Assembly: GCF_000014265.1 (NCBI RefSeq)
Contig: NC_008312.1
Coordinates: forward strand, 2,850,001-2,882,000
Direction of reading: 5' to 3'
Length of the DNA: 32,000 nucleotides
Origin: Trichodesmium erythraeum IMS101
Lineage (GTDB): Bacteria > Cyanobacteriota > Cyanobacteriia > Cyanobacteriales > Microcoleaceae
Shown one piece after another: positions 2,184 to 30,205 of this stretch. The notes beneath the pieces are model-generated. The model was not told the DNA's origin, did not search any database, and saw nothing but the letters and a program-made list of their open reading frames with translations. The stretch's first letter is position 1, and each line of letters starts with the position of its first letter. The position numbers were made by a program, and so were the translations under genes.

Positions 2184-2832
2184 GAATTTTATGCCAGAAT
2201 TTATTCCGTTAAACCATAGATGAGTCAAGTTTTTTTTACTCAAATTAAAATGGCTTTGCTTTGGGAATAAATATATAGATTCCTATCATATTATAATTGT
2301 AATCTATAATTTACTATCATTGACATACTCTACGACCTAAAAGTGTTGCTATTCGTAGGTTTCCATAGTTCCTGGGCTAGTTGAAGTTTGATAAGGGTGG
2401 ACATCTTAGGTAACTCTCAATAATTGTCATCTTTTTTTTATTGATTTTTATGATGTGGAATAGTTTAGGTTCACAATGGGAATATTAATATTAGTTGGAA
2501 AGGAAAATAACCTAGAAATAATTATAAAAATATTCTGTCAACAACACTATTTCTCATAACATTAAATCAAATTCAACATGATTTATTAATAATAATAAAT
2601 CCAAAAAGCTATAATTAAGTGATATAATAATTATTTAAGTTTTTATACAGGCTTAGTTGTAAGTTTAACGTGCTAAAATAACTTTTTATTTATCTTTACA
2701 AGAATACTTTATACATATATATTTCTGAATCAACCCCATAGAATTTCCCAATCTGTTAGTGGATCATATGGAGTTTCTTAGCAAGCTGCAAGAGGTAACA
2801 ACAATAGTCAACTAATAAACCAAAGTGTTCAT

Positions 2833-3090
2833 TTGACTGAGCAGCAGAAAACTCTTGCAGAAGCAGCGACAGAAATTCAAAGGCTTCTTAAGCAGCTAGA
2901 AGTTAGCGATCCTAATGCTACTGAAGTTGAGATAGTAGCTTATGTTAATGATGAGACGACTCCCAGTCTTAAACGTCGAGCTGTTGCTGCCTTGAAATCT
3001 GGTAGTGAGGCTGCAATTGAAGAGTTTTTGGACAATCCTTATATTAATGTGGGGAAAGCTATTGTTAAAAGTTGGATTAAACCTGAATAA
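2833..3090 (+). CDS. Small (85 aa) helical hypothetical protein of a type common in filamentous cyanobacteria
   Basis: Clean ORF with a TTG start and alanine/glutamate-rich, helix-like composition (LAEAATEIQRLLKQLE...). From memory it resembles small proteins often found beside conflict-system or pentapeptide genes in Nostocales and Oscillatoriales. No function is assignable. Confidence 0.5.
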   Translation: MTEQQKTLAEAATEIQRLLKQLEVSDPNATEVEIVAYVNDETTPSLKRRAVAALKSGSEAAIEEFLDNPYINVGKAIVKSWIKPE

Positions 3091-3325
3091 ATTTCTCAAG
3101 CAGCACTTTACAGGACAACTTATTAAAGTTTTTAATTTAAGAGCTGATTTTTAAACTTATGAAACTCCAAAAAAGGAGGATTTCAAATACATCTAAACGA
3201 AAATTCGACTGAATATGGTAAAAGCTTTTTCGTTTAAAGAAATTAAGTATCTCTAGATTGAGTAAATAAATTAGCTCCAAAGTTTTTTTTCGTAATTTCT
3301 ACTCAGTTAAACAAGTATTGTATTT

Positions 3326-5104
3326 ATGAGCACAGACCCGAACAAGGACCCAACTATTGAGGACCCATGGGGAAAAGATTCTGGAACTGAAAATGGTCTA
3401 GATAATCTAGGTAAGAGTGGTCAAGAGCAAGGCAAAAACCCAGAGGAGCTATCTGATCAAAACCCAACAGAATCTGATGATGGACTTAGAATAGAACAAA
3501 ACGTTAAAGATAATCAAGGGGCTGTTTTCCAATAAACTGCATCAGGCAATAATAACACTCAAGAACAGAGCCAAAATTAGCAAGCTGCTGTGAGCAAAAA
3601 TGCAGGAAGGGAAACTAGAACAACTCAACAAACTACAGATGGTAATAACAACAACCAAAACTATGTTGAAATTTTTGTTCAAAATCAATATTCCCAATAT
3701 AAGGATGAAAAAAAAGATGGCTTTAGCCAGAATTAATCCAATGTAAACCAAGAAGTAATTGATCCAATAAAACCTTTACCTCCAAAGTCAAAAAGTCTTC
3801 CTGATGTCGGAATTGATGATTTATCTGATTATTCCCAGAAATTACAAGAAGACTATTTGGTTGTTGTTACTTGTTCAGATAATAAAACTGCATATTCAGT
3901 TGCCTATAGTTTGACTGAGAAAATTTCAGTCTCAAACAAGAGGTTGTTTACAGGAGGGCTAGGAGCTTCTAAAAAATTAGATTACGCAATAAATATAGAT
4001 AACATTGTTATTAATTCAGCTATTGGAAAAGAGTCAAGCTTGATTCTTGTAGACAGCTATGAAGCACAAACTTTTTTAGATTCTCTGGCTGTAGAATTTT
4101 CTACGGCAGAGCAGATCAAACAACAGTTAAGAAATAGTCAAAGATTTTGCATCTGTATAGCTCAATCAAAAGTATTAAAAAGTACACTAGAAAGGAAACA
4201 GATTAAATCTCTGTCATTCCCGCACTTGGAAGTTCCGTTTGTAGAGTCAAAAGCTACAAATGAAAATATAGACCAACAGATAGGTATCTATGAAAAAGAA
4301 GATGGTGCTGCACTACATGAGAAAGTAGACGTTCTACGCAAGACTGTACTATATGTAGCAAGATTCTTTCAAGGTTTAAGTATCAGTGATTTTGAGCGCA
4401 TTGTTTGTTTTTTACTAGGAGAACAAACAACTCTAATTGAGGAGAAAAATAAAGTTGAAACTCCTGTGAATTCTGACTCAACAGTTTCATTAACAATTAG
4501 AGATATTATCATGCCTAAAGTTTACGTTTTAGAGAATGTGATTAAAAGAATTAGTGAAAATGAAGCTTCTCAAATAAAAAAACAAATAGAAAAATCAGAT
4601 ACCAAAAAGTTGGTGATTATTGATGAAAAAACTCAGACATTTTTTTAGATAGAATTACTTGAACGAGAGACTCCGTTAAATATTCAAGCGAAGAAGTTAA
4701 TTAAGGCGCAAGAGCAGATAACTCAAGATCAAAAGCTGCGTCTAGTTGAAACAAGTATATCTTTAGATGAAATTGAAACTGTTTAAAAAGAACTTGAGCT
4801 ACTCCGTGGACACCTTCAGGATCTAAGTAGTCAGTCTGGCAATGAGAAACGCAAAAATAAATATAGACAACAAGAAAAAGAATTAAAGCAGAAATTATCG
4901 GAACTTTTACAAACTAATAAAGAGAAAGCTCATAAGCTTACATCCCAACAATATTCTTTATTAGCTCCTAGCGTAAATGATGATGATGATGATGATTTTG
5001 ATGCTTTAGTTAATAAAGTAGAACTTGAACTACAAGCAAGTGAAAATACACAGAAAAAATTAACTCGCGACCAAGCTTCGCCTAGTGTTGATAATGATAA
5101 TTAA
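3326..5104 (+). pseudogene. About 590-codon reading frame interrupted by five in-frame stop codons and no frameshift, lying directly upstream of the ZorA-like gene
   Basis: All segments share one frame (start positions congruent to 2 mod 3). Internal stops are TAA 3533, TAG 3578, TAA 3734, TAG 4646 and TAA 4784, and the terminal TAA is at 5102. The last 105 codons (4787-5101) are open but contain no start codon, which argues that they were once part of a longer gene. The N-terminus is disordered and N/Q/D/E-rich, the centre is globular (LVVVTCSDNKTAYSVAYSL...), and the C-terminus is a coiled coil plus a DDDDDD tract. Confidence 0.6.
3857..4648 (+). CDS. Largest uninterrupted piece (263 aa from a TTG) of the interrupted frame; hypothetical protein if expressed independently
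   Basis: ORF track entry. The open frame actually begins at 3737, right after the TAA. I recognise no motif. Confidence 0.3.
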   Translation: MVVVTCSDNKTAYSVAYSLTEKISVSNKRLFTGGLGASKKLDYAINIDNIVINSAIGKESSLILVDSYEAQTFLDSLAVEFSTAEQIKQQLRNSQRFCICIAQSKVLKSTLERKQIKSLSFPHLEVPFVESKATNENIDQQIGIYEKEDGAALHEKVDVLRKTVLYVARFFQGLSISDFERIVCFLLGEQTTLIEEKNKVETPVNSDSTVSLTIRDIIMPKVYVLENVIKRISENEASQIKKQIEKSDTKKLVIIDEKTQTFF

Positions 5105-5132: not shown

Positions 5133-6557
5133 ATGAAACAAATTTTAAGTAGATATAAAATTGCTAGTTCCTCTCCACAGAATCTAACTAAAAACCCTTT
5201 ATTTTGGCTTAACAGTCAGATAGATTTCATTTTTGTATTATTATTAGCAATATTAATTTTAATTGCCTTTTTTAGATATACATATTCTCAGGGTTCAACT
5301 ATATCAAATGTTTTCAATTTCTTGATCCACTGTTTAGGTATTTGGGGGGTTGTTGTTACTGCTATAGCTATAGCTACAGTAGAAATAAATAGAGCGATCG
5401 CGAATGAAACTAAAGAACAAGGTGAAGATGGTCTCCGAAAAAAAAGAAAAGTAGACCTAAGCAAATTAGAAGAAAATTATTTGCCAGCAAATATAACTGA
5501 ACCTACTTTAGCTATGACTCGCCTTTTTCGTCATGTTTGCAATGAAGCTAAAAACTTGAGGTTTGAGTCAAGTATTAATATTGTTGAGCCATATCGTGAT
5601 GAATCTCTTGACAGTCTTTTTACAATAACAAATATTCAGAAAATTGCCCTAAGAGCAGGAATTTTCGGAACATTTATAGGTTTACTCGAAGCAATAATTC
5701 AACTCAGTCAAATTGGTTCTGAAGTAACTCCCATAGAAGCTATAAAAAACCTTTCAGGAGCTTTATTTATATCATTTAGCACGACAATAGCAGGGTTAGA
5801 AGTTGCAATATTACTTGGATTTTTACTGATGATATTGCGTAAACGTCAAGAGAAATATTTTCGAGACATGGAAAGTTCTGTTGAAGTTATTCTCTTGCTA
5901 GCTCGAAATGCTGATAATGACGATCAATCAAGAATTTTAGGGGAATTAGCAAAAGTTGAAAGCGTTGTAGAGCAGCTAGGAAAAAGGTTTTACGAAAATA
6001 CTCAAGAGATTCAACGTAGTATTAGTGCTGTTCTAGAAAGAATTGGAGAACAAACCAATGAGATACAAAAAGGTATGGAACAAATTAAGCAAACTAAAGT
6101 AGATTTTGATAGATTTATTAATGAAATAAGTGAAGTTCAAAATAACTTTATTGAGGAAGTAAAAGAAATTTACAGTGAACTTTCTCTAAAAAGTTTTAGA
6201 GATGACATAAAAAACGGAATAGTATTTGCCGGGCAAACAATTTCTAGTAAACTTGATGAGACAGAAAATAGTATTCAACAACAGACAGAACACATTGATG
6301 CAGGTATTAATACTTTGTCAGAAACCAATGCCAAATTTGCAGATTTTTTACGACAACTTGACTCGTCTCAAGTCAACTTTATGAGAAATATAGAAAACTC
6401 TCAATATACATTTTCCATGTTAGAAGCCAATGCTAAACTACGAACTACAATTAATCAAGCAATTCAGCGTATGGAAGAAATTACATATACGATGAGGACA
6501 GTCAATAAATCTTTGAATAAACCACTCCTACAAAGAATTAAAAACATATTTAATTAG
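5133..6557 (+). CDS. MotA/TolQ/ExbB-family proton-channel protein with a long C-terminal coiled-coil tail (ZorA-like architecture)
   Basis: ATG preceded by GAGGAG. Four predicted TM helices lie at about aa 31-47, 62-83, 171-191 and 209-235. Family-typical motifs are GIFGTFIGLLEAI (TM3) and ALFISFSTTIAGLEVAILLGF (TM4). A cytoplasmic loop of about 90 aa separates TM2 and TM3, as in MotA. Residues 236-474 are a charged, heptad-like, helix-rich tail (E/K/Q/I-rich). Confidence 0.8.
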   Translation: MKQILSRYKIASSSPQNLTKNPLFWLNSQIDFIFVLLLAILILIAFFRYTYSQGSTISNVFNFLIHCLGIWGVVVTAIAIATVEINRAIANETKEQGEDGLRKKRKVDLSKLEENYLPANITEPTLAMTRLFRHVCNEAKNLRFESSINIVEPYRDESLDSLFTITNIQKIALRAGIFGTFIGLLEAIIQLSQIGSEVTPIEAIKNLSGALFISFSTTIAGLEVAILLGFLLMILRKRQEKYFRDMESSVEVILLLARNADNDDQSRILGELAKVESVVEQLGKRFYENTQEIQRSISAVLERIGEQTNEIQKGMEQIKQTKVDFDRFINEISEVQNNFIEEVKEIYSELSLKSFRDDIKNGIVFAGQTISSKLDETENSIQQQTEHIDAGINTLSETNAKFADFLRQLDSSQVNFMRNIENSQYTFSMLEANAKLRTTINQAIQRMEEITYTMRTVNKSLNKPLLQRIKNIFN

Positions 6558-6588
6558 ATAATAAATTAACCATAAATTAGAATTTTAT

Positions 6589-7356
6589 TTGAGGATGAAA
6601 AAACTTTGGAATTTTGTTAGTAATGAAGAAGATCCTTTCGGTCCAGGAGTCGATTTAATTGTTTCCTTACTTGCTATACTATTAGTAATGTTGGTGATTA
6701 CTGCTGGAGCTTATCAAGATATTAATACTAAATATCAGGAATCAGTAATATCTTTAGAATCTTCAGAAAATAGAGTTAAGCAATTAACAAAATCACTAGA
6801 TTTTGAAAAAGAAAAGAGTTCAGAATTATATAAAAAACTAACTGCTGAAACTTCTGCTAGAATTCCACAATTTCCTCCTAATATTGTTATTACTGCTGCA
6901 GAAGGATATGATTTTCCTTCAGGTAGTGCCGAGCTAACTGATGCTTTAAATAAATATATTCGTAATAAACTTCTTAAAAATATTGAGGAAAATATTCAAA
7001 AATATGACGTTAATACCGTAGTTGTAATTGGTCATACAGATGGACAACCTGTTGCAGATCCTGTCAGTAACCTTGACGGCTTAGTTGAAGAGGTTGCTAG
7101 TGGAAGTAAATCTATAAAAGAATTACAAGAAGGGTCTAATATAGATTTAGGAATTATGAGAGCATTAGCAGTCGTTAGAAAACTTCAAGACATTCAAAAG
7201 TCAGAGGGAAGACTTAAAGGTATTGACCCGTTGAAGGGTTTTCGCGCATATTCTTCGGGTCCATTAACCTTAAAAAATGGAGAATTTGCTCAACCTAATG
7301 AAAACCCTGATCAACAGAGGCGACGTATTGAGATTCGTTTTACTAATTCGGAGTAA
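6589..7356 (+). CDS. MotB/OmpA-like peptidoglycan-binding stator partner (ZorB-like)
   Basis: Starts 32 nt after the preceding gene. The start could be TTG 6589 or ATG 6595. A single N-terminal TM has an Asp at its cytoplasmic edge (GVDLIVSLLAILLVMLVITAG), as in MotB/ExbD/TolR/ZorB. The C-terminal OmpA-family domain reads FPSGSAEL ... VVVIGHTDGQPV ... NLDLGIMRALAV ... RRRIEIRF. Confidence 0.8.
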   Translation: MRMKKLWNFVSNEEDPFGPGVDLIVSLLAILLVMLVITAGAYQDINTKYQESVISLESSENRVKQLTKSLDFEKEKSSELYKKLTAETSARIPQFPPNIVITAAEGYDFPSGSAELTDALNKYIRNKLLKNIEENIQKYDVNTVVVIGHTDGQPVADPVSNLDGLVEEVASGSKSIKELQEGSNIDLGIMRALAVVRKLQDIQKSEGRLKGIDPLKGFRAYSSGPLTLKNGEFAQPNENPDQQRRRIEIRFTNSE

Positions 7357-7815: not shown

Positions 7816-9438
7816 TTACCAAGTTACCCGATCGCTTAATTTATCTAATATTTTAGGTCCAATACCAGATATCTGATCTAGATCTGCTAAAGATGTAAAA
7901 GGTTTATTTTTCCTAGCTTGAATAATGCGTTCTGCTAATTTTGGTCCGACTCCAGGAAGTGTTTCTAATTCTTCAGCAGTAGCAGTATTGAGATTAATTT
8001 TATTATTAGTATTTGTTAGGAAAATTTCAGTTTTTGTTAATCTATCACCACATTCTTGTTGTTGTTTTTCAACTTTTTTTATCAACCATGATGGTATACC
8101 CATAGTTGCTGTTTGATAAAGTCTTTGAAACTCACGTTCAAAATGAGCTGCTACTGTGGAACTTTCTATTACTAATAAAGTTTCATCATTGTTTTTATTA
8201 GCTGCTTCAGTCCAGTTGTGAGAACCAGTAATTACAATTGAATTATCAATAATTCCAAATTTGTGATGGAGGCGATCGCCAGGGGGTAAGTTAGGTACAC
8301 CTACTGTATATATAGGTTTTTTCCAAGTCTGATTATTAGTTTCATATTTACATTTATTTGGCAGAGCAATTCCCATTATATCTAACCCTTCACTATAGTA
8401 ACGATAGGCAAAACTACGGTCAATTAAACCTTGAATTAATACTCCTTGTAGAGATTTTTTTTCTAGGGTATTAACTAATAGTTGTGCTGAAAATATAAAT
8501 AGGGATAAATTAATAGATTTTTGTGCTTTTTCTAATGTTTGATTAATTAGACCATTTACACTTTTTTGCCAAGATAGACTCTTAGAAGTAGGAGAAAATT
8601 GTACTGCAACTTTTGTATCACCAACCAATACTTCTCTTGTCTGTCTAAATGGTTTTTTGATGCCAAATTTACTATCTAGTTTACCTCCAGGTCCGTCTCC
8701 CCATAAGAGATTAAATTCTTCTGTGAATAGTTCAGCTAATTCAACACTTTCTATTTTTAAGAGATTATTAGTATTTCCTTGACTCAGAGACTCCGAAAAA
8801 TCCCCATGAATACCACTGGTAGTAAAATTAGCCGAGGTGACAATGGTGGTTTTACCATCCACAACTAAAAATTTATGGTGCATCAAACCACTACCCTTAG
8901 AGCCATCAGCAGTATCATCGATCAAGGGAACTCCTGCATTGCTTAAAATTATTAGAGCATCCCTATGATTCACTTTATATTGACTAATGTCACCATCTAT
9001 GTTATTGCTAGAGATACTAATAAATTCATTGTAGCGATCGCGCTCCCGTTCAGGCAGTTGAGAGACTTCAGATGGACTTAAACTTTCCCAGGGAAGATTA
9101 TAGGTATTTTCAATAATAACTCGTACTTTGACCCCAGCTCGATACCTTTCGGCCAAAGCCTGAGTGATACTTGGTAAACTTAACTCTTGAACCGCCACAT
9201 ACACAGTAGAATTAGCATCAGCAATAGTATTAACAATTATTTCTTCAAGATTATCTCCTAGTCGGGTTTGCTGGCGTAGGACTTCAGTATAGCTTGAAGC
9301 TTGAGATTGATTAAAGTAACATTTAATTAGAGGTTCTTGTGGCAATGGGGATAGAGGAGGAACTAACTCTTGAGGTTTATTCAGACAAGCAGTTAGGTTC
9401 AAAGTTAATAGTAAAACATAGCTAAATCGCAGTTTCAA
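7816..9438 (-). CDS. Phospholipase-D-superfamily (HKD) nuclease-like lipoprotein with a C-terminal ComEA-type helix-hairpin-helix DNA-binding domain
   Basis: Two HKD motifs are present: HHKFLVVDGKTTIVTSANFT and HHKFGIIDNSIVITGSHNWT. The C-terminus, NLNTATAEELETLPGVGPKLAERII...LDQISGIGPKILDKL, is a tandem ComEA-like HhH. The ORF track extends to 9507. An internal TTG at 9438 gives MKLRFSYVLLLTLNLTAC, a textbook lipoprotein signal peptide with a lipobox (LTAC). Confidence 0.8.
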   Translation of the reverse strand: MKLRFSYVLLLTLNLTACLNKPQELVPPLSPLPQEPLIKCYFNQSQASSYTEVLRQQTRLGDNLEEIIVNTIADANSTVYVAVQELSLPSITQALAERYRAGVKVRVIIENTYNLPWESLSPSEVSQLPERERDRYNEFISISSNNIDGDISQYKVNHRDALIILSNAGVPLIDDTADGSKGSGLMHHKFLVVDGKTTIVTSANFTTSGIHGDFSESLSQGNTNNLLKIESVELAELFTEEFNLLWGDGPGGKLDSKFGIKKPFRQTREVLVGDTKVAVQFSPTSKSLSWQKSVNGLINQTLEKAQKSINLSLFIFSAQLLVNTLEKKSLQGVLIQGLIDRSFAYRYYSEGLDIMGIALPNKCKYETNNQTWKKPIYTVGVPNLPPGDRLHHKFGIIDNSIVITGSHNWTEAANKNNDETLLVIESSTVAAHFEREFQRLYQTATMGIPSWLIKKVEKQQQECGDRLTKTEIFLTNTNNKINLNTATAEELETLPGVGPKLAERIIQARKNKPFTSLADLDQISGIGPKILDKLSDRVTW

Positions 9439-10464
9439 AGAATAAAGTAGCACTAATATTAGGAAATCAAGTATTTTATTAAACAAAAATTGATGGTAAT
9501 TAAACAAGAAGTGATCATTAATAATTGCTTCTTGAAAAAGTTAGATGTATTGTAAAGTTATGGTTAGGGTTATAGCTAAAATATTTATTAATATTAATTT
9601 GACTAAAAGAGGGAGCCATAAAAAAATTAGTCTTGTGGCATAATAGCCAATAATTTGAAGTTATTATTATTAACTGCTTCTTTGGCTCTAAAGCATTATT
9701 GAATAGCTGAGGGCGATAGATTAAAATTATTGCCCAAATTAAGTTTTGTACTTTGGTTTACCAAAGCAAATCTTGTTTGTTTGAAAGATGAGTAAATGTT
9801 TAATTGCAACCCCTGATATTCTTCTTCGTTTACCACTCAAAATTATTGTGAACAGGTCGTCGTTCCAATAAACTTTCCCAAATTTACATAAGGATTATTA
9901 AATAAGCTTTGGAGCTAGCTTTGGTGTTTCACTCTGATGCTACTGAAAGTAGTCTATAACTTAATCTATGACTTAGGAACAAAATACTAAAGAAGCTCCA
10001 AATTATTCATATAGTTTTCCCTCATTATTCATACTGCTACAATATTTCTCAACTATGTATGTGTAAATTTAGATAACTATAGTGAATTTTTATTTAACTG
10101 TCAAGTTCCTTTCAAAACTTTTACTTGACTCTTTTTTTACATTTAATGACCAAGCATAGGCTGGTTCCCATGATGCTAGGTGTTTTTTCAAGGGTTCAAG
10201 TACCAATACATAATTGCTGGGACTGGACATTTTGTGACCTGCCTAATGTAGTGTACAGTTGGCCTCGTCAGTTGATTTAAACTTTTTACCCTGGGCACAC
10301 TAGCTTTTTAAATACAAGTAAGGGTTTTGATTAGATTTTTTGTTAATTTTTTGTAGAGATGTTTTTTGTATTGTTCATTCCATAATCTCTTAGTAAATAA
10401 TACCATTTATCAAAAACTTTTCGACATTTTCTTGTAGGAAAGTAAGAGAGTAGGGCAGTGGAAT

Positions 10465-10491
10465 TAGGGACATTGCATAAAAACATCCATA
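10465..10491. repeat. Imperfect member of the TAGGGA hairpin-repeat family
   Basis: TAGGGACATTGCATAAAAACATCCATA, to be compared with 11-36. Confidence 0.45.
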
Positions 10492-10912
10492 CAATATAAT
10501 AATAATTAACATTAACATTAACTTATCTTAAATTAATAAAAAAGTTATTCTCTATATTATATATTAATTATTTAACAACTGAAGTTTTACTTAACTAAAG
10601 TATTAATGCATGGTAATTGGTATCAGAATGAAGTGAAAAACTCAGAGCAACTTTGTAAGTAGTCTTTGATATTCACCTACGCCAAGCGCTTAATAGCTAG
10701 GGACAATGTCAATATATTTTGTTTTCATCTATGTTATGATGTTAAAGATTGTAAATAGCTATCAGCTTTTAGTACTTAACTATCAGCTTTTTTTTAAGCT
10801 TGGATTCAAATATAATATTCCTATAAATATGATGGTTGAGAAAGGGTTGAAAGACCCTTGGCTCACGTGAAAAATTATTCTTGAGGACTCAGAGAATTTG
10901 TAAACTCAGATT

Positions 10913-12524
10913 ATGAAAGCTAGATTTAAGTACTGTATATATCCAAATGGGGACAAAAATACCCAGGGGGCAAAGCTATTTGTTTTTGTCCATTTTGTCT
11001 TAAATGAGAGTCTAGATGGCTATCAACAAAAGTATAAATTAGGCTTAAAGAAACTATTATTATCTAAGTTACAAAAACTCTTTATGACTCAAGCTAAAAA
11101 AATTGAATATCAGGAGTGACTCTCATAAATTTCTAATATTCCTTTGCCAAAATATTTGAATTATTTGAGGTAGCCTTTATGAAATTCGGCATTATTCATA
11201 GGTAAATATGGTTTTTCTGATTTGCCGATAACCTAACTATTAACTGAAAAATATTTTAGATTTAGTAAAATAATGTTTTCATAGCAATATTTCATCAATG
11301 CCCAATTTTTTTATCTTACTTTTAGGTTGATAAAAAAATGCCTGTCTGTTCAGGCTTATAAATTTAAAAGCCAGAAATCACTAGGGGAACTGCAAGGTTA
11401 AGAAAAGGTGGGTTGAAATTTTGTTAACATCAACTTTCTAGCAAAATTAAAGTTATAAAAATCAAAATTATTTGTTGAGATAACTACCTAGTCTGCCTCG
11501 CTCTGTCAACTACATTAATTTTAATCTAAGAGATATTTTATTGGTTTTGTCGTAAAAATTAATCCATAATCTTTATTTAAAATCGATAATTATGTAGGTA
11601 TATATTTGGGCATAAAAACTTTTGCAATGTTGAAATGATGAGCAAAAATTAATTCGCTAAAACTATTGAAAAAAAGTAATTAATAACTAGCATATTTTTG
11701 AGGAAAAACATTTTCTGAAAATAACAACTTAGTCAGTAGTTGTCTAAAAATTAGTTAAGTTATCAATGGAAAATTACTAATTTTCAAGGTTAACTTAAAG
11801 ATACAACATATAGCTTTCTACAAAAATTATTAACTAGTATTATTTTGCACAAAAGTTAAGTGATTGTACTCTAAAAGTAAAGTATTATAATTAAACATAA
11901 TGAAAATATTTTTCTGGAATTTATTGCTGCCAATTCCCAATCCCCAATTCCCAATTGTCTGAAATTTTCCCATGATTTGGGTATTCACAAACAGAGACAT
12001 GATCTGAAATTTGAATGCTTCTAGAATGATGAAAAATTTTTACTTAGGGAAAAGTATGGTCGCAAGGGAAATCCCGACAAAACAGTAGATGATCCATGGT
12101 AGTTAAGTGAGATAGGTAGGCTACAATTAGGAACACTTCTAGAAGGTAAAATAGAAAAATATAATTGTGACTTTAGAATCATTGTATAGATGGTAAATAA
12201 CATCTCTTACTTTACTATTGTTGTGAAACTTAATGGTGGAAAGTTAGATCTTTCAAGTAAGAATGGTTTTGTCTTAACACTTGATGATGAATACGACTGC
12301 GATGAAAATATAGGGATAAATAAGCGATAAGTATATTGCTGACTCTTTCGGTATTTGGAGAAAAAAACGACGTGGAGATAAATGTAACCTACAACGTACC
12401 TATTCACCCATCTCTTGGGGGTGGGTCAGGTTCGGTGCAATATTCTATTAGACGTCAACTCCCGGAGGAGCTTGGGCTCGGTAGAATTCCTGTGCCTGTA
12501 GGCCAGGGAAGATGTCAAAACTAA
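10913..12524 (+). pseudogene. tnpB: Heavily decayed IS200/IS605-family TnpB (OrfB, RNA-guided nuclease) gene
   Basis: The N-terminus MKARFKYCIYPNGDKNTQGAKLFVFVHFVLNESL...QKLFMTQAKK matches the canonical TnpB start (M-K-A-F/Y-K-Y-R-I-YP...FG..R.V.N). It continues in frame through stops as E*LS*ISNIPLPKYL (cf. EWLSEVSSVPLQQSL). A RuvC-I motif remnant, VGIYLGIKTFA (11594-11626, D to Y), is in the same frame as the start. A RuvC-III-like remnant DCDENIGIN (12295-12321, cf. DRDxNAAxNI) lies in another frame. The final 62-codon tail ORF is 12336-12524. Confidence 0.75.
11930..11956. repeat. Short tandem heptamer repeat (STRR-like), CCAATTC/CCAATCC, about 3.5 copies
   Basis: The sequence reads ccaattcccaatccccaattcccaatt. 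Heptameric STRR repeats are a known feature of filamentous cyanobacteria. Confidence 0.6.
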
Positions 12525-12530
12525 CTTTGC
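12395..12530 (+). other. GC-rich (about 50% by hand count) structured 3' end of the TnpB remnant; candidate omega-RNA (reRNA) scaffold / IS right end
   Basis: Local hairpins include GAGC-ttgg-GCTC and CCTGtGCCtgtaGGCCAGG. This segment is far less AT-decayed than the rest of the pseudogene. In IS605-family elements the guide-RNA scaffold overlaps the tnpB 3' end and right end. The exact boundary is not determinable here. Confidence 0.4.
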
Positions 12531-12536
12531 TGTTTT

Positions 12537-12935
12537 ATGCCGAAAAGAAAAAGGACTTTTCCGTGTGGTCATAAAGGATATGGGAGAAAATGTCATCGCT
12601 GTGAACAAGAGAAAATGGTACAGCAAAGAGCTGAGGAAGAAATAGCGGAAAAGCGAGAAAAAAGGTTAGAGTGGGAAGCTTCCTTCGATTGTGATTTGAT
12701 AGATTTGAAGGGTCTACCAGACTATGTAGTGGTTAAAGCTAGAGCAATTATTTCTGGGTTAAACAATAATCAAAGCTATCGAGAATTTGGAGGTAAACGG
12801 CTGCGCCACAATCGTTTTATTGTGAGTATACCTGTTACTCGTAATTATAGAATGATTTGTCAAGATTATGGGAATTTTGTTGTGCCACAGAAGGTGATGT
12901 CCCATGAGGATTATAATATTTGTAAACCCAAGTAG
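12537..12935 (+). CDS. ParE/RelE-like toxin-fold protein with an N-terminal basic CxH...CxxC zinc-ribbon-like segment
   Basis: The N-terminus is MPKRKRTFPCGHKGYGRKCHRCEQ. The C-terminal part, GGKRLRHNRFIVSIPVTRNYRMICQDYGNFVVPQKVMSHEDYN, follows the RelE/ParE pattern (G..L....S.R....YR.I........V..V..H..Y). From memory, cyanobacterial homologues are annotated as ParE family toxin-like. No adjacent antitoxin-sized ORF is visible. Confidence 0.55.
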   Translation: MPKRKRTFPCGHKGYGRKCHRCEQEKMVQQRAEEEIAEKREKRLEWEASFDCDLIDLKGLPDYVVVKARAIISGLNNNQSYREFGGKRLRHNRFIVSIPVTRNYRMICQDYGNFVVPQKVMSHEDYNICKPK

Positions 12936-13752
12936 TTAGGGGGCAGGAAGTAGAGATAGTGAAACAAATAGTTCTAGTTCAAAAATTGGATAATTTATTT
13001 TTTGCTCCTTGCTGGCTTTTAGTCCCTCTACAAGGAAATCAAAAGATAAAAACTCAAGGTATTATTGCTAATGCTTTGAGTAAGAAGTTTACCTAGCTAA
13101 ACTAGATAGAGAGCATTACTTTAGATTTTGAATTTTGTATTTTGCGGATACTTTGGTTTTCAATTTTCTTATACAAAACTTCTGTTTTCTCCCTTTTACC
13201 TTCTTCTTTTAAGTCAAAATTTCTATATTCTTGAATAATTAAGATTCCTGTAATAAGGTGAGCACTTCAAAAAGTCAATTAGACTATAATATGCTAAATA
13301 CATTTTTGAGCAATTGAATCCTCAGAGATTAAAGGCAATACAACAAGATTAGAAGGTAATTAAAGAGTTTTTCAGATTTCTTTTTATTGAGACTAAATCC
13401 TTAAAGGTTTGAGTTGGATATACTTAGAGCTTATTCGTTAGTTGATGAATTACAGTAGTATTAGACTTTTAAATAGTTTTTAAAGAAAGTCTGGAATCAA
13501 GTTGTAATTCTTACTTTTGCTAATTTACTATAGTCACTATACCATGCTTTACTAGGAATAGGTTGACTACAAAAATAAAAAATTATAAGTATGCGTTGGA
13601 TGTTTTAAGTATGTTCAAATATTTAACTTATTTTATAAGTGATGAGATATTCTTTTTATTTAGGTACAGTTGTTTTTATTCTTTTCTATGCCTACAGAAC
13701 TAGATTGATTATACCATTGATCAAGGACTTTTCAACTAGGCTATCGAGAAGG

Positions 13753-13778
13753 TAGGGATTTTCCATACAACGTCCCTA
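13753..13778. repeat. Member of the TAGGGA...TCCCTA hairpin-repeat family
   Basis: TAGGGATTTTCCATACAACGTCCCTA, with the same 26-nt length and termini as 11-36. Confidence 0.5.
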
Positions 13779-14017
13779 AAATATAAAAATAATTAGTATT
13801 AGACCTATGGAAAAATAAAAATTTGAGAAGGATAGTAAAGGGTTTAAAAACTATTTGCGGGAGAGGTCTATTAATGAGAGCAAGTGGAGAGATTGAAGGT
13901 TATTCCCTTTGTGTTTATTACTAAGGGTTTCATAAATTGTACAGAAAGCTAGCATTAATGCATGCTACTCCCTAAAACCTAAGTCACTAAAACTTAAAAG
14001 AAAACAAAAGGAGAAAG

Positions 14018-15220
14018 ATGATGCAAATTTATCTGGACTATAGTGCGACAACACCAACAAGACCAGAGGCAATCACTACTATGCAGCAAGTTTTGACTCA
14101 ACAATGGGGTAATCCATCTAGCCTACATATGTGGGGCCAAAGATCGGCAACATTAGTGGAAAAGGCCAGAATTCAAGTAGCAGATCTTATTAATACAGTG
14201 CCAGAATCAATTATTTTTACTTCTGGGGGAACTGAAGCTGATAATATGGCGATAATGGGAGTAGCACTTTGCTATGGAAAACCTCAACATATAATTATTT
14301 CTAGTGTGGAACATTTTGCTATTTCAGAACCAGCAAGGGTATTAGAAAACTGGGGTTGGCAAGTGACCAGATTACCTGTGGATAGACAAGGAAGGTTAGA
14401 TCCTCAAGAACTACAAGCTGCATTACAACCAAATACAGTTTTAGTTTCAATAATTTATGGCCAAAGTGAAGTTGGGACTCTCCAACCTATTGCAGAATTG
14501 GGCAATATTTGTCGTGATCGTGGGGTTTTGTTTCATACTGATGCAGTTCAGGTGGTGGGACGTTTACCAATAGATTTACAAAAACTGCCAGTAGATTTGT
14601 TGTCTTTGTCTAGCCATAAAATTTATGGCCCTCAAGGTGTAGGGGCGCTTTATGTACGACAGGGTGTAAAGTTAGTCCCTTTATTGAGTGGTGGAGGTCA
14701 AGAGATGAAGTTACGTTCTGGTACTCAGGCAGTAGCAGCGATCGCTGGTTTTGGTGTGGCAGCAGAATTAGCTAATGAAGAGATAGCTACAGAAACGTCA
14801 AGGTTGAGTAGGTTACGCGATCGCTTCTTTGCGCATATGGTAGATAATCCTTATGTAATTTTTACTGGTGATCGATTGTACAGGTTACCTCATCATGTTA
14901 GTTTTTGTATAGTCCCTCCTGAGGTTGAAATGCCTAAGGGGAATAATCAGGTTACTGGTAAAACTCTCGTACGACAATTGAACTTAGCTGGAATTGGTAT
15001 TAGTACGGGTTCAGCTTGTCATAGTGGAAAAATAGCTCCGAGTCCGATATTACTAGCAATGGGGTATACAAAAGAGCATGCTATTAGGGGTGTCCGTTTC
15101 ACATTAGGAAGAGAAACAACGGAAGCTGATATTGATTGGACGGCTATAGTACTCAAGCAAATCTTGACAAGATTGATGCCTAATGTTAATTCTCAAAAAT
15201 TTTATTGTATATCTTTGTGA
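14018..15220 (+). CDS. Cysteine desulfurase (class V aminotransferase, NifS/IscS family)
   Basis: The motifs present are IYLDYSATTP, GGTEADN, the PLP-lysine motif SSHKIYGPQG and the active-site cysteine loop STGSACHSG. The ATG is preceded by AGGAGAAAG. Confidence 0.9.
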   Translation: MMQIYLDYSATTPTRPEAITTMQQVLTQQWGNPSSLHMWGQRSATLVEKARIQVADLINTVPESIIFTSGGTEADNMAIMGVALCYGKPQHIIISSVEHFAISEPARVLENWGWQVTRLPVDRQGRLDPQELQAALQPNTVLVSIIYGQSEVGTLQPIAELGNICRDRGVLFHTDAVQVVGRLPIDLQKLPVDLLSLSSHKIYGPQGVGALYVRQGVKLVPLLSGGGQEMKLRSGTQAVAAIAGFGVAAELANEEIATETSRLSRLRDRFFAHMVDNPYVIFTGDRLYRLPHHVSFCIVPPEVEMPKGNNQVTGKTLVRQLNLAGIGISTGSACHSGKIAPSPILLAMGYTKEHAIRGVRFTLGRETTEADIDWTAIVLKQILTRLMPNVNSQKFYCISL

Positions 15221-16631: not shown

Positions 16632-17931
16632 TAGTTTATAATTAGGAGTAAGTGAGAAGGAAGGAGAAGGAAGTGTTCAGTTTGAATCAAATATTCAACT
16701 GAATACTATCCGATTTTTTAATATGTTTAATTATCTCAGTTTGAGGTCAATAAGAATGATGGTAGTGGTATATTTAATAATATTTGGGTTAAAATATTGG
16801 GATTAATTTCTGTATCAGCTATAGAAAACTCAGTTAATTGTACCTTTCTGATAAAAGAAATCTATGATTGCTAAATTGGTTCCAAATTGAAAATCCCACA
16901 GGGAATGCTTAGTAATAACCGATGGATAATTAATGCTACTCCAGCTCAAAAATTAGCTACACAAGGGGCAATAATTGAGAAGGTATGTATAAAATAATTT
17001 TAAGCTCTGGTCACAGCCTAAGTATCTGGTTTATGACGAATCACAGATATAATTTAAGTTTAATGGGTAAGGGAACGAATTTGCGCCTAACCCATCTTAT
17101 ACTAGGATTTAATTTTTGTTTAGAGATACCCTCATTAAGCCCCCGTTCTTGTAATTTTTTTACCTTTTAGAGTTGATAATATGTAACTTGTATAAGTTGC
17201 CAACTATTTTCTCAGCTTCAATTACTATTTAAGGGAAAATAACTTACATATCGCAAAGTTTTCACAGAAAAATCACAGGGTATGGGGGTTTTTCATTTCG
17301 GAAACAATCATACTAATTCTTGTACGTTAATACTATATTTAGTTAGTACTTCAGTTATTCAGTAATTTATAGTATATTTAGGATTTTAAGTAAAAAAACT
17401 ATTCTGGTTCAACGTGGGAATGGTCAGCTAGTTATAAAGATATTTGTTCTTTAGATAAATGAACTATTGAGAAAATATATAAATATGATGGATCTATGAT
17501 GTAGATCATTATTTTGTAAATATGTCAAATAATGGTTAGATAAACTGAATAAAATTAGTTGGCCATTATTTAGATAAAAGTTAGGCGATCGCTAATAAAC
17601 TGAAGAAGACAATGAATATTTGAGGTGTTTGAATTTCATTAAGCAATTAATATCCATAAGGATTATTTTTCACTGATATGATCATGATAAAACTGAAACT
17701 GTTGAAACTTTCTGAGCTAGTTCAGCTTTTTTTTGTGTTTTTTTGTGTTATGTTGATCAGAAAGTGAAAAATTTTCAAGGAAAAACCTGAGATTTATTAT
17801 TAAAACTTCTAGGATCTTGATGACTGGGAAAACTTAACATTTTTTACTTTTTCCTTTTTTTCTTCTTAACACCAAAGGTTAAGTATTCAAGCGGACATGA
17901 TATACAATAATAATAGAATTTGATAGAAATT

Positions 17932-19743
17932 ATGGATGAACAATTCTTAGGAGATAACTCCTCAATAATGTCTAACTTTTCAGAGCCTTCGGTTGAAATT
18001 TTTGACTTGTTAGGAGGTAGTAACTTTGATGAAGGAATAGGAATAACTACTGACAATGAAGGCAATATTTATATAACTGGTAGTACCACATCTACAGATT
18101 TTGAAGTGACTCCAAATGCGGTACAAAATAGCTTTGGTGGAGGTGATGAATTTCGGGATGGTGATGCTTTTGTTGCTAAATATTCCCCTGATGGAACTCA
18201 AGTTTATGCTACATATATAGGTGGAAGTGGTAGAGATTTTGGTACGGATATTGCTTTAGATACTATAACCGGAGATATTTACATTACGGGTAGTACTAAT
18301 TCTGTTGACTTTCCGACAGTAAATGCTTTGCAAAATACTTATGGGGGTGGTGATTTTTCTGGGGATGCTTTTGTGGTCAAACTATCTAATGATGGAAATA
18401 ATATTCTTTATTCTACTTATCTAGGTGGGCAAGATAACGATTATAGTAGTGCTATTGCTGTAGATAATAATGGGGATGCTTATATAACTGGAGAAACTGG
18501 TGCCCAACTCCGTTTTCCAATTCAACCTATTCCTGGAGTTGGTGATTTTCCAACTACAGAAAATGCTCTACAAAAGACTCTTGTTAATGAACTTAACCGA
18601 GATAGTTTTGTGAGTAAGATATCTACTGATGGAAATCAATTAATTTACTCAACTTTATTAGGTGGAAATGACACAGAAATAAGTCAGGATATTACTGTTG
18701 ACAATAATGGTAATGCTTATATTACTGGTCAAACTCGTTCCTTTGATTTTCCAACTGCAAATGCAGTACAAAATACGATAGGAGGAGATGGAGATGTATT
18801 TATTACTCAGCTTAATAGTGATGGTAGTGACCTGATTTTTTCTTCTTACTATGGTGCTGTAGATGGAGATATTGGTAATGGTATTGCTGTAGATGATATG
18901 GGTAGTATCTATATAGCTGGAAGTTCGGGTAGTCAAATTATGGGCGGTGATGCGGTAGTACCTGCAGTTGGTGAGTTTCCTATTGTTAATGCTTTGTACA
19001 ATACTTTTGGTGGGGGTGAAAGTGATGGAATATTGATTAAGATCAATACTGAGCGCTTAGTTACTTTTGGTGATAGTGAAAGTGATGAAATATTACTTAG
19101 GGAAATTGATTATCGTTCTGTTGAATATGCTACTTACTTAGGTACGGAAAATTTAGATTTTATTGAGAGTATTGATCTTGATGCTGCAGGAAATATTTAT
19201 ATTGTTAACAACAATAATCTTTTTAATACTGTTGTGAGTAAAATATCTAATGATGGTCAAGTTATAGAATATTCTATTCCCTTTCGGATAAATGACAATA
19301 TTGGGTTATTTGGTAATGATATTAAAGTAGATGAAGTTGGTAATGCTTATTTTGTCGGCTTGACTATTCCTAATACTGATTTAGATATAGATAATGAAGA
19401 TGCCTTTATTGGTAAAGTTACTGCCAGTACTTCCTCTCCTGATCTTCCGATCTTTGTTACTCCTCCTAATATTGGTGAGAGTTTCGACGAAAATCTTTAT
19501 TTAATAGAAAATCCTGGTGTGGCAAATGCTGTGGCAAACGGTTTTTTTGATAGTGGGTTTGAGCATTGGTTGGAGTTTGGTTTTTTGGAAGGGCGATCGC
19601 CTCAGTTGGCTTTTGATGAGCAATTTTATTTGGCTACTTACCCAGGAGTTGCTAGTGCTGTAGCAAATGGTGTTTTTATTAATGGTTTAGAACATTACGT
19701 TAAGTTTGGTGAAGCAGAAGGGCGTTTACCTATGAGGAGCTAA
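17932..19743 (+). CDS. SBBP (beta-propeller) repeat protein with two C-terminal copies of a YL..NPGVA.AVANG.F..G.EH...FG..EGR motif
   Basis: The unit D..GN(I/A)YITG.T.S.DFPT.NA.QN..GG..DAFV.K...DG....YSTYLGG repeats about 7-8 times. I see no N-terminal signal peptide. The ATG at 17932 lies inside an ORF that opens at TTG 17920. Confidence 0.8.
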   Translation: MDEQFLGDNSSIMSNFSEPSVEIFDLLGGSNFDEGIGITTDNEGNIYITGSTTSTDFEVTPNAVQNSFGGGDEFRDGDAFVAKYSPDGTQVYATYIGGSGRDFGTDIALDTITGDIYITGSTNSVDFPTVNALQNTYGGGDFSGDAFVVKLSNDGNNILYSTYLGGQDNDYSSAIAVDNNGDAYITGETGAQLRFPIQPIPGVGDFPTTENALQKTLVNELNRDSFVSKISTDGNQLIYSTLLGGNDTEISQDITVDNNGNAYITGQTRSFDFPTANAVQNTIGGDGDVFITQLNSDGSDLIFSSYYGAVDGDIGNGIAVDDMGSIYIAGSSGSQIMGGDAVVPAVGEFPIVNALYNTFGGGESDGILIKINTERLVTFGDSESDEILLREIDYRSVEYATYLGTENLDFIESIDLDAAGNIYIVNNNNLFNTVVSKISNDGQVIEYSIPFRINDNIGLFGNDIKVDEVGNAYFVGLTIPNTDLDIDNEDAFIGKVTASTSSPDLPIFVTPPNIGESFDENLYLIENPGVANAVANGFFDSGFEHWLEFGFLEGRSPQLAFDEQFYLATYPGVASAVANGVFINGLEHYVKFGEAEGRLPMRS

Positions 19744-28438: not shown

Positions 28439-30205
28439 ATGGTAGCAGTTTCTAGCAATAACTATAACGATGAAAAATTTATCCCCTCTTTTGATGAATT
28501 TACTGGAGTTGTCTATTTTGAAAATATTAAGACGCAAGTAAGTTGCACAGGGGCTTTACTAGATAGTAATGGCCTTTATATTTTGACGGCTGCCCATTGC
28601 TTTAATAAGCAGAATGATTCGGCAAACTTAAATCCTAACCCTAATAATTATAAAGTCTTTTTTGAAGTTAATGGTACTCTTAAATCAAGACTTGTCGAAG
28701 AGATTTTTGTTCATCCTGAGTGGACATCTGATGAAAATAGTAATAACGATATTGCTATCATTAAACTCTCTAATGAAGCGCCTGATGTTGAGAGCTACGA
28801 TATATATCGTGATACTGATGAGGTGGATCAGGTTTTTACCCGTGTGGGTTACGGTTTCCCTGGAACTGGTAGAGACGGTCAGATTGATGATTCAGGAGAA
28901 GACCCCCCTGTCAAGCGTTTTGGACAAAATTATTATGATGCCTTGGGTGAGATTTTCAATGATTATGATTATGATACTCCAATAATAAAAGGTACACAGC
29001 TAGCCTTCGACTTTGATAATGGGAAACCAAGGAGGGATGCTTTTGGTCGTGAATACGGTTTGGATCAGTTGGGAGTGGATCAAGAGGTTAATTCTACAGC
29101 AGGAGATTCAGGGGGTCCGGCCTTTATTGATGGGAAAATAGCTGGGATCACATCCTATGGTTTTTCTTCAGGTATGTATGATACAGATGTAGATGATGAA
29201 AGTGGTAATTCTAATTTCGGAGAATACAGTGTTGATATCAGGGTTTCAGCTTATATAGAATTTATTACAGACATTACATCCTTATCACTTGAGGGAAGTA
29301 GGGGTGATGATACTATAAAAGGAGGTATTGGTAACGATACTATTAATGGAGCTTCTGGTCAAGATAGACTTTTGGGAAAATCTGGCAATGACTTCTTAGT
29401 AGGTAGCTTTGGTAATGATGCTTTGTTAGGGGAAGCAGGTGATGATATTCTAAAAGGCGGTGGGGGTCGCGATCGCTTGAACGGTGGTACTGGCAACGAT
29501 ACACTTACTGGTGATGGAGGTAATGACCGCCTCAACGGTAGTGGAGGTAATGACCGCCTCAACGGTAATACTGGCAACGATATACTTACTGGTGGTGGAG
29601 GTAATGACCGCCTCAACGGTGGTGGAGGTAATGACCGCCTCAACGGTAATACTGGCAACGATATACTTACTGGTGGTGGAGGTAATGACCGCCTCAATGG
29701 TGGTGGAGGTAATGACCGCCTCAATGGTAATAATGGCAACGATATACTTACTGGTGGTGGAGGTAATGACCGCCTCAACGGTGGTGGAGGTAATGACCGC
29801 CTCAACGGTGGTGCTGGAAATGATATACTTATTGGTGGTGGAGGTAATGACCGTTTTATCTTTAATAGTAATGAAAAATTTGACTCCAATGATTTTGGTA
29901 TTGATACTATCAAAAATTTTGAACCAGACCTCAGACCTGATGAAGATGGAAGCCAAGGTGACTTAATTGTTCTTGACAAGTCAAGCTTTACTGACCTTGG
30001 TAGTTCTACTCGTATTGGTTTCAGTGTTGATAGTGATTTTGAAATCGTTAATACTAATAATAGTATAGATGACTCTAATGCTTTTATTGTTTACAATGAA
30101 GAGTCTGGAAATCTATTCTACAAATCAGATGGTGAGTATACTAAGTTTGCTATTCTTAATGGTGCGCCCACTATTACTGAAGATAATTTCCAAATTATCA
30201 ATTAG
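28439..30205 (+). CDS. Trypsin-like (S1) serine protease fused to RTX (hemolysin-type Ca-binding) nonapeptide repeats; probable type I secretion substrate
   Basis: The catalytic triad contexts are LTAAHC (His), NNDIAIIKL (Asp) and GDSGGP (Ser). About 20 GGxGxDxL/I nonapeptides follow (aa 285-480), then a non-repeat C-terminal region typical of T1SS signals. There is no N-terminal signal peptide. Confidence 0.85.
   Translation: MVAVSSNNYNDEKFIPSFDEFTGVVYFENIKTQVSCTGALLDSNGLYILTAAHCFNKQNDSANLNPNPNNYKVFFEVNGTLKSRLVEEIFVHPEWTSDENSNNDIAIIKLSNEAPDVESYDIYRDTDEVDQVFTRVGYGFPGTGRDGQIDDSGEDPPVKRFGQNYYDALGEIFNDYDYDTPIIKGTQLAFDFDNGKPRRDAFGREYGLDQLGVDQEVNSTAGDSGGPAFIDGKIAGITSYGFSSGMYDTDVDDESGNSNFGEYSVDIRVSAYIEFITDITSLSLEGSRGDDTIKGGIGNDTINGASGQDRLLGKSGNDFLVGSFGNDALLGEAGDDILKGGGGRDRLNGGTGNDTLTGDGGNDRLNGSGGNDRLNGNTGNDILTGGGGNDRLNGGGGNDRLNGNTGNDILTGGGGNDRLNGGGGNDRLNGNNGNDILTGGGGNDRLNGGGGNDRLNGGAGNDILIGGGGNDRFIFNSNEKFDSNDFGIDTIKNFEPDLRPDEDGSQGDLIVLDKSSFTDLGSSTRIGFSVDSDFEIVNTNNSIDDSNAFIVYNEESGNLFYKSDGEYTKFAILNGAPTITEDNFQIIN
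29516..29866 (+). repeat. About 4.3 near-identical tandem copies of an 81-bp unit (three RTX nonapeptides: GGGNDRLNG GGGNDRLNG NTGNDILTG)
   Basis: The string ggaggtaatgaccgcc recurs at 29516, 29543, 29597, 29624, 29678, 29705, 29759, 29786 and 29840 (alternating 27/54-nt spacing, so an 81-nt period). Only a handful of substitutions separate the copies. Confidence 0.9.

Follow-up and report, generated by a model that had tools for sequence, protein, structure and literature searches.

A distant relative of the ZorAB motor pair in Trichodesmium erythraeum, probably orphaned by the decay of a larger Zorya-like cassette

We asked what a gene pair resembling a flagellar stator is doing in a non-flagellated cyanobacterium, and which partners it belongs with. 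The pair, here called genes A and B, lies in a stretch of 32,000 nucleotides from Trichodesmium erythraeum IMS101 (contig NC_008312.1, positions 2,850,001 to 2,882,000 of the forward strand); the window, below, means this whole stretch, whose GC content is about 33%. To our knowledge, Zorya is the only immune system built on a rotary motor of the flagellar-stator type. A preliminary description of the locus, made from the sequence alone, had taken A and B for a Zorya-like stator pair without a canonical Zorya effector, and had proposed either a minimal or variant Zorya-type system or a distinct machine driven by the proton-motive force; an upstream frame of 590 codons was named as its only co-directional partner. 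Our comparisons show that a conserved cassette ends with A and B, and that its other genes have been destroyed in the Trichodesmium lineage of the window. The parts of the cassette that can be traced in the window are as follows.

2728 to 3090, plus strand: small first gene, damaged; its start codon is lost and a Gln codon has become a stop at 2779-2781, leaving an 85-residue open reading frame that begins with TTG at 2833-3090.
3326 to 4513, plus strand: pseudogene remnant of gene X; codons 1-397 of 829 are kept and 398-829 are deleted (by tblastn, and by blastn against the intact contig L025).
4502 to 4648, plus strand: N-terminal remnant of gene Y, about 43 first codons (3-43), fused in frame to the X remnant and ending at TAG 4646-4648.
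4658 to 5104, plus strand: C-terminal coiled-coil remnant of gene Y, codons 653-773, interrupted by a nonsense codon (4784-4786) beyond which there is no usable start.
5133 to 6557, plus strand: gene A, intact, a ZorA-like subunit of the MotA/ExbB superfamily, 474 amino acids.
6589 or 6595 to 7356, plus strand: gene B, intact, a ZorB/MotB-like subunit, 255 or 253 amino acids.

The product of gene A has four hydrophobic segments (residues 32-50, 57-85, 168-189 and 217-235), with a cytoplasmic insert of about 85 residues between the second and third transmembrane (TM) segments (residues 86-167). The four-segment MotA topology and the two signature helices that had been read from the sequence are both borne out: GIFGTFIGLL occupies residues 176-185, TTIAGLEVAI residues 217-226, and MotA_ExbB (PF01618) is the sole Pfam family above its gathering score (29.3 bits against 22.9, over residues 161-247, the TM3-TM4 hairpin). 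Among the pore-lining residues of the family G176, G179 and G183 are invariant, and T180, S214, S216, S218 and E223 nearly so; the pore-lining helices thus carry a polar Thr/Ser ring with a GxxGT motif, and the GILGTF of the A family aligns with the GIIGTF/GVIGTF of ZorA. The protein then continues into a tail of 238 residues (237-474), 29% of them charged and only one of them Pro. This tail had been described as a charged helical extension of about 240 residues, and it has the periodicity of a coiled coil: averaged over the family alignment, its hydrophobic periodicity at 3.5 residues reaches a power of 19.3, against 6.7 at the 99th percentile of shuffles, and its matches in Pfam and the PDB are of the coiled-coil type only. 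Both tail and cytoplasmic insert are conserved over four phyla. Proteins 96-97% identical to A are found in Trichodesmium sp. MAG_R01, and contigs of MAG_R02 match as well.

Gene B may start at TTG 6589 or, as gene callers prefer, at ATG 6595 (253 residues), that is 31 or 37 nucleotides past the end of A. Its layout is much as first proposed: a short cytoplasmic N-terminus leads to one TM segment bearing an Asp, then to a linker, which is helical, and to a probable peptidoglycan-binding domain of the OmpA type; the closing RRRIEIRF proves to be the C-terminal end of the cyanobacterial B proteins. Across 13 sequences Asp22 lies in an invariant P19-G20-x-D22-L23 motif (GPGxD22L) at the cytoplasmic edge of the single TM segment, and the C-terminal domain keeps an invariant GH together with N184, R191 and A192, which fit the pattern NxxLxxRA. 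The Pfam OmpA model scores 15.9 bits on B, below its gathering score of 27.2, and PADLOC ZorB1 scores 41.6 bits (E 2e-11). When the B family profile was compared with the PDB, the best match was 8vvn_B (E 1.5e-3), followed by the peptidoglycan-binding domains of PomB, MotS and MotB.

We then considered where A and B stand among the known stators. In PADLOC, ZorA3 is matched by 14 of the 16 A-family members tested (best E 8e-13) and ZorA1 by 13 of them, the protein of the window scoring 15.9 bits with ZorA3. Five NCBIfam ZorA models (ZorA_1, _2, _3, _4 and ZorA2) weakly match members of the family at E<=1e-3, all far below their cut-offs, and at the same threshold the TolQ, ExbB, MotA and PomA models of NCBIfam match none of the 16. 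Among all PDB sequences, the only MotA-type chains found by the A family profile are ZorA (8vvn_C, 8qyd, 8qyh, 8qyy). Removing the tail left just three matches at E<=10, all of them ZorA chains aligned over the TM3-loop-TM4 hairpin, with no TolQ-, ExbB- or MotA-type chain. A and B share 8VVN, the type I ZorAB of Shewanella (PMC11890865), as their best PDB entry. These comparisons show, at the level of sequence, a membrane pair of the MotA/ExbB-MotB type whose closest known relatives are ZorA and ZorB, which agrees with the Zorya-like character first proposed. By the same measure A-B is a distant relative of ZorAB, forming a separate family within the superfamily, and a ZorAB member by no curated threshold. 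The family is discrete and rare: a search of 1.84 billion cluster representatives yields 160 at E<=1e-30, a number that rises to 243 when the threshold is relaxed to E<=1e-10.

The likeness to Zorya extends beyond the scores. Both systems have the gene order A then B, a channel subunit of the MotA/ExbB type with a long C-terminal coiled-coil tail, a B-type subunit with one TM segment, an Asp (essential in ZorB) and an OmpA-like domain (probable in B), and soluble partners in the same operon; ZorA and ZorB are moreover the best and nearly the sole named matches of A-B in PADLOC, NCBIfam and the PDB. The differences are also clear. A has four hydrophobic segments in a MotA-like, N-in arrangement, whereas the ZorA papers count TM1-TM3. 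The partners of A-B lie upstream rather than downstream, are unrelated to ZorC, D, E, F and G, and often include a CHAT protease instead of a nuclease. The tail of A, with its 238 residues, is shorter than the approximately 500 residues of type I ZorA, as the preliminary description had noted. This is not unusual for Zorya: the rod of type II is similar, since in the ZorA of S. kujiense the cytoplasmic rod was modelled over residues 110-378 (PMC11890865). The flagellar MotAB and PomAB motors with their accessory protein FliL offer a second comparison. There too a four-TM subunit has a cytoplasmic insert between TM2 and TM3 and a B subunit combines an Asp with an OmpA-like domain, as B probably does, but A has no sequence match to MotA or PomA, MotA lacks the long coiled-coil tail, and among the hosts of A-B are cyanobacteria that have no flagella.

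The evidence that A-B belongs to a larger unit comes from its neighbours. Scanning one genome per species gave 20 A-B loci, 19 of them preceded by 5 kb or more of sequence, from cyanobacteria (Trichodesmium, Okeania, a Synechococcales metagenome-assembled genome and Tolypothrix), Acidobacteriota (Pyrinomonadaceae, Blastocatellia, Thermoanaerobaculia and Paludibaculum), Gemmatimonadales and Aminicenantes. In 18 of the 19, across four phyla, two genes that we call X (about 780-915 amino acids) and Y (about 730-820, up to 1309) lie directly upstream of A-B on the same strand. A gene for a CHAT protease adjoins X in nine of the 19, and CHAT is the sole non-repeat Pfam family enriched in the flanks, with 16 of 125 flanking open reading frames (ORFs). 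The cyanobacterial cassettes open, in place of CHAT, with a small first gene of 122-156 amino acids, homologues of which hold the same position in loci L005, L006, L007, L025, L029 and L030. All five genes are intact in Microcystis (L030; LE19-131.1A, JAPZSS010000302), in a JGI metagenome contig (L029) and in a Trichodesmium-type contig (L025) that shares 96% identity with the window across A-B. The pair is thereby shown to be the end of a cassette with the order (CHAT or cyanobacterial small protein)-X-Y-A-B. The idea of a minimal two-gene system finds no support in this result, the partners being present directly upstream as pseudogenes; the conserved association with a third gene that the preliminary description had required of orthologous pairs does exist, X and Y taking this place and not ZorC-G. 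Full-text searches (Zorya variants, ZorA with CHAT or SPFH, Trichodesmium defence) returned no description of an X-Y-A-B cassette, and it is probably a Zorya-like motor system with new partners, apparently undescribed.

Two further features of the Thermoanaerobaculia loci L012, L016, L018 and L019 were observed. A conserved gene of 305-325 amino acids with a weak match to Nal1_C (serine-protease-like) directly follows B on the same strand. Near B there is also a gene for a CHAT-TPR protein of about 1085 amino acids with an anti-sigma-type zinc finger, together with a sigma-70-like gene, on the opposite strand (on the same strand in L014).

In the window the small gene, X and Y have been destroyed, and A and B are left as intact ORFs. 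Compared with L025, two in-frame deletions of about 1.3 kb (at 4500-4513) and 1.8 kb (at 4637-4658) removed the second half of X and codons 44-652 of Y. Because both are in frame, what remains of X and Y reads as one frame of 593 codons (3326-5104), the upstream partner of the preliminary description. That this frame is a gene is ruled out by five in-frame stops and by the two deletions; it is the wreck of two genes. Three nonsense codons lie within the X remnant, at 3533-3535, 3578-3580 and 3734-3736. Taking the small gene, X and Y together, the five nonsense codons (2779, 3533, 3578, 3734 and 4784) all stand at Gln codons of the intact L025 allele. Nonsense codons arise most often by change of CAA or CAG to TAA or TAG. 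The pattern is consistent with C-to-T changes at CAA/CAG in an AT-rich genome; C>T is the commonest window-specific substitution in the region of the small gene and X (17 of 80). Reassignment of these stop codons to Gln can be ruled out, since the frames of A, B and the adjoining genes close at ordinary TAA or TAG stops and the nonsense codons come with large deletions.

The same cassette is decaying elsewhere, each time differently. In MAG_R02 a nonsense codon interrupts A at position 407. The Okeania locus (L006) has an in-frame X-Y fusion that forms an open ORF of 1256 amino acids, and its A is without TM1-2. Y is split in L026, and in L016, from Thermoanaerobaculia, A-B has been kept with only the tail of Y. 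The Synechococcales locus (L007) points in addition to horizontal movement: its cassette has a GC content of 32-37% within flanks of 50-57%, and it splits a CHAT-NACHT-TPR gene into two pieces (3056-4408 and 12263-14368), the Walker A (GMGGLGKS) having stayed with the upstream piece and the Walker B (LLIVLDD) with the downstream one. No target-site duplication of 8 nucleotides or more was found at this insertion, which may yet be a chimeric assembly.

What X and Y may do had to be approached through their folds, since searches of Pfam, PADLOC and PDB sequences gave no useful match for either and only the comparison of folds was informative; the X/Y remnant of the window (3857-4645) has no NCBIfam match. 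In PADLOC none of X, Y and CHAT matches a Zor model, and no operon with ZorC and ZorD, with ZorE, or with ZorF and ZorG was found. The AlphaFold2 model of Y (mean predicted local distance difference test score, pLDDT, 82) consists of four alpha/beta modules in tandem and, after them, long helices spanning about 100 residues. Its 29 top Foldseek matches in the PDB are all SPFH proteins (flotillin, stomatin, prohibitin, erlin, HflK/C) or FliL; with stomatin, flotillin, prohibitin and HflK/C the Foldseek probability is about 1.0, and isolated SPFH domains are matched with TM-scores of 0.67-0.73. Pfam Band_7 reaches 19.6 on Y, under its cut-off of 23.6, and PF01145 is precomputed on two homologues. 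Like SPFH proteins, Y as modelled has an SPFH-like fold and then a long C-terminal coiled coil, a combination that drives the assembly of rings or cages in SPFH proteins. It differs from them in having four tandem modules, a Band_7 score below cut-off and no TM or hairpin anchor, the hydropathy of the Y sequences, judged by eye, revealing no hydrophobic segment. FliL is likewise a different case, being periplasmic with one domain, whereas Y is cytoplasmic with four modules. In Tolypothrix (L008, 6256-10002) and Gemmatimonadales (L013, 6042-9971) Y is longer, at 1248-1309 amino acids, and is expanded by extra SPFH-like modules; the number of modules is therefore variable across loci.

The predicted model of X is of lower quality (pLDDT 68 overall, 75-95 in most folded parts). 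Its disordered N-terminus, which carries a CxxC...CxxC ribbon in Acidobacteriota, leads into a Rossmann-like alpha/beta domain, after which come a winged-helix-like region and a large C-terminal helical domain. The top Foldseek matches are SAMD9, Avs4 and AVAST5 (E 7e-7 to 5e-4), then ORC/Cdc6 and Apaf-1. With Avs4, AVAST5 and SAMD9 it has in common the succession of an alpha/beta domain resembling nucleotide-binding domains, a winged-helix-like region and C-terminal helical repeats, but it has no recognisable effector domain, and the TM-scores are just 0.12-0.17 because the domains are differently arranged. A Walker-B-like hhhhD is kept, yet the defining Walker A of STAND proteins (GxxxxGK[ST]) is absent: at the place of the P-loop all 31 aligned sequences have TCSDxS, with no Gly-rich loop and no Lys. 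As modelled, X has an antiviral-STAND-like architecture (nucleotide-binding domain, winged helix, helical domain) without a Walker A.

From these results we propose, with moderate confidence, that the cassette is a Zorya-like system of the accessory kind that serves in conflict or defence, and that its copy in the window is most likely non-functional as a system, A and B having been orphaned recently. Its accessory, conflict-type nature is suggested by the rare and patchy family, the low-GC insert of L007 and the repeated decay, as well as by the antiviral-STAND-like X, the linkage to CHAT and the kind of genes in the flanks, which include matches to HigBA, to HATPase_c_3 with a methyltransferase, to CHAT-TPR and to MADS-like proteins. 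If the pair behaves like ZorAB (PMC11946911) and other 5:2 motors, five A subunits would surround two B subunits in the inner membrane, the OmpA-like domains of B would anchor to peptidoglycan, and protons flowing past Asp22 of B along the polar ring of TM3 and TM4 of A (T180, S214/S216/S218, E223) would turn A together with its bundled tail. At full extension the coiled-coil tail would measure about 33 nm. In an intact cassette it could pass a signal of envelope perturbation to Y in the cytosol, where the four modules and the closing coiled coil of Y may build a ring or cage of the SPFH type; the signal would also reach X, a STAND-shaped scaffold presumably unable to bind nucleoside triphosphates in the canonical way. 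In Acidobacteriota, X and Y would then control the CHAT caspase-like protease as the effector.

A more specific version of this scheme is possible, and we offer it tentatively, as the less likely side of an even bet. The cassette would be a fourth, mechanistically distinct Zorya-like immunity, in which a 5:2 motor acts through an SPFH-type cage and a nucleotide-independent STAND-like scaffold on a caspase-like protease and not on a nuclease. If true, it would combine a stator motor with an SPFH protein and with a pair of STAND-like scaffold and caspase-like protease, three modules that have not been seen together before, and it would widen the output of stator motors from nucleases to proteases. 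A ZorAB relative with wholly different partners would also be an independent natural experiment on how such a motor is coupled to a cytosolic effector.

Several observations weigh against a conflict system. The antiphage_ZorA_1 model of NCBIfam scores 29.3 bits on A against a cut-off of 190, so that A lies below the curated ZorA threshold, and in the PDB the TM core of A matches ZorA at E 0.049 only. Neither X nor Y has a PADLOC match, PADLOC v2 holding no models of them. None of the cyanobacterial cassettes is adjoined by a protease or nuclease gene, and the viral contigs and plasmids searched held no relatives of the cassette. Matches to defence models occur in just a handful of the 125 flanking ORFs (CHAT, TPR, a few MADS, kinase-like and other); these are too few for a statistical claim of a link to defence islands.

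The remaining objections concern the orphaned state of the pair, and they feed the alternative that deserves most attention, although we regard it as unlikely: A-B might still work alone in this Trichodesmium lineage, as a minimal Zorya-type sensor or as a peptidoglycan-anchored proton channel that serves another purpose or has unlinked partners. Both ORFs are found intact and unchanged on 11 contigs from different samples. B has a dN/dS (ratio of non-synonymous to synonymous substitution rates) of 0.17-0.19 (0.19 against L025), the mark of purifying selection, and on the branch leading to the window A has no non-synonymous and two synonymous changes. Window-specific substitutions amount to 1.6% in A-B against 4.5% in the X remnant, and the independent lineage L016 has also retained A-B with no more of its partners than the Y tail. 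The selection signal is nevertheless ambiguous. The pairwise dN/dS of A is 0.43-0.72, a range that rests on just 7-8 synonymous changes. Moreover, the synonymous divergence (dS) from the L025 haplotype rises from 0.024 in A to 0.115 in B and 0.18 in the next gene, which encodes a protein with PLD domains; such differences between adjacent genes suggest mosaic ancestry or recombination within the locus. The X remnant is consequently not a reliable neutral reference for A-B, and we dropped it as such. Further arguments come from outside the window: Zorya defence is abolished by deletion of any component (PMC11946911), X and Y are kept in nearly all related loci, and A itself is being lost in sister lineages (MAG_R02, Okeania).

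As compared with decay of a conflict cassette, it is also improbable, and still a little harder to uphold than autonomy of the pair, that the cassette is a machine for membrane or envelope homeostasis, with Y as an SPFH scaffold and A-B as a peptidoglycan-anchored motor powered by the proton-motive force, after the manner of FliL with the stator, HflK/C with FtsH or flotillin with Psp. FliL, an SPFH-fold accessory protein found among the structural matches of Y, associates with flagellar stator units according to published work. The four SPFH-like modules of Y point the same way, as does the absence of any recognisable toxic effector from the cyanobacterial cassettes, and published accounts link SPFH proteins to membrane-stress systems. 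Such a machine is, however, hard to reconcile with a rare and patchy distribution, with horizontal transfer and repeated decay, with an antiviral-STAND-like fold in X and with the frequent linkage to a CHAT protease; Y besides has no membrane anchor, unlike FliL, HflK/C and stomatin. Finally, that A-B is a common stator paralogue of the TolQR, ExbBD, gliding or flagellar kind whose C-terminal extension arose by chance, as MotA_ExbB being the only Pfam family above threshold and one product name ('biopolymer transport protein ExbB/TolQ') might suggest, is very improbable, as the preliminary description had held; all tests made speak against it, given profile and PDB matches of A to ZorA and none to TolQ, ExbB or MotA, a tail and insert conserved across four phyla, and 20 neighbourhoods with no TonB, TolA, Pal, gliding or flagellar genes.

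If A-B is the orphaned end of a conflict cassette, as we favour, the Trichodesmium locus shows with unusual clarity the decay of an accessory cassette under way, with intact, half-dead and nearly dead versions in different strains, and it lends itself to strain comparisons. There is also a point of annotation: the 'ExbB/TolQ' protein and the unnamed OmpA-like protein at this place would be orphan survivors.

As first described, nothing follows B on the plus strand: no ORF of at least 80 amino acids occurs there before 12537. Scans of the window with Rfam and for tRNAs, promoters and terminators found nothing. Two genes nearby are of note.

7816 to 9507, minus strand: convergent lipoprotein gene with two PLDc_2 domains and HHH_3, a lipobox LTAC and a ComEA-like C-terminal helix-hairpin-helix (HhH).
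12537 to 12935, plus strand: protein of 132 amino acids that combines a zinc-binding DUF7682 at its N-terminus with a ParE-like toxin domain (Pfam E 5e-28).

The first had been pointed out as the nearest nuclease, convergent with the pair and exported. Its convergent orientation is as described, and it scores for NucT and DrmC, possibly being a competence or extracellular nuclease. As an effector of the cassette it is ruled out: it stands outside the conserved cassette, adjoining it only in Trichodesmium, where it is syntenic, and not in Okeania or other loci. Beyond it, about 3 kb (9508-12536) hold no ORF of 70 amino acids or more. A fragment of 68 amino acids at about 10913-11119, taken from the gene calls of L001, has a weak match to HTH_OrfB_IS605, and the region looks like a decayed element of the IS200/IS605 type. 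No antitoxin ORF of at least 70 amino acids was seen adjoining the ParE-like gene.

Two repeat proteins lie farther along the plus strand. The one at 17920-19743 (607 amino acids) is built of repeated units of the form DAFV.K...G...YSTYLGG. The other, at 28439-30205 (588 amino acids), has by eye a trypsin-like N-terminal part followed by many RTX-type GGxGNDxL nonapeptide repeats, and the strand antisense to it carries long spurious ORFs.

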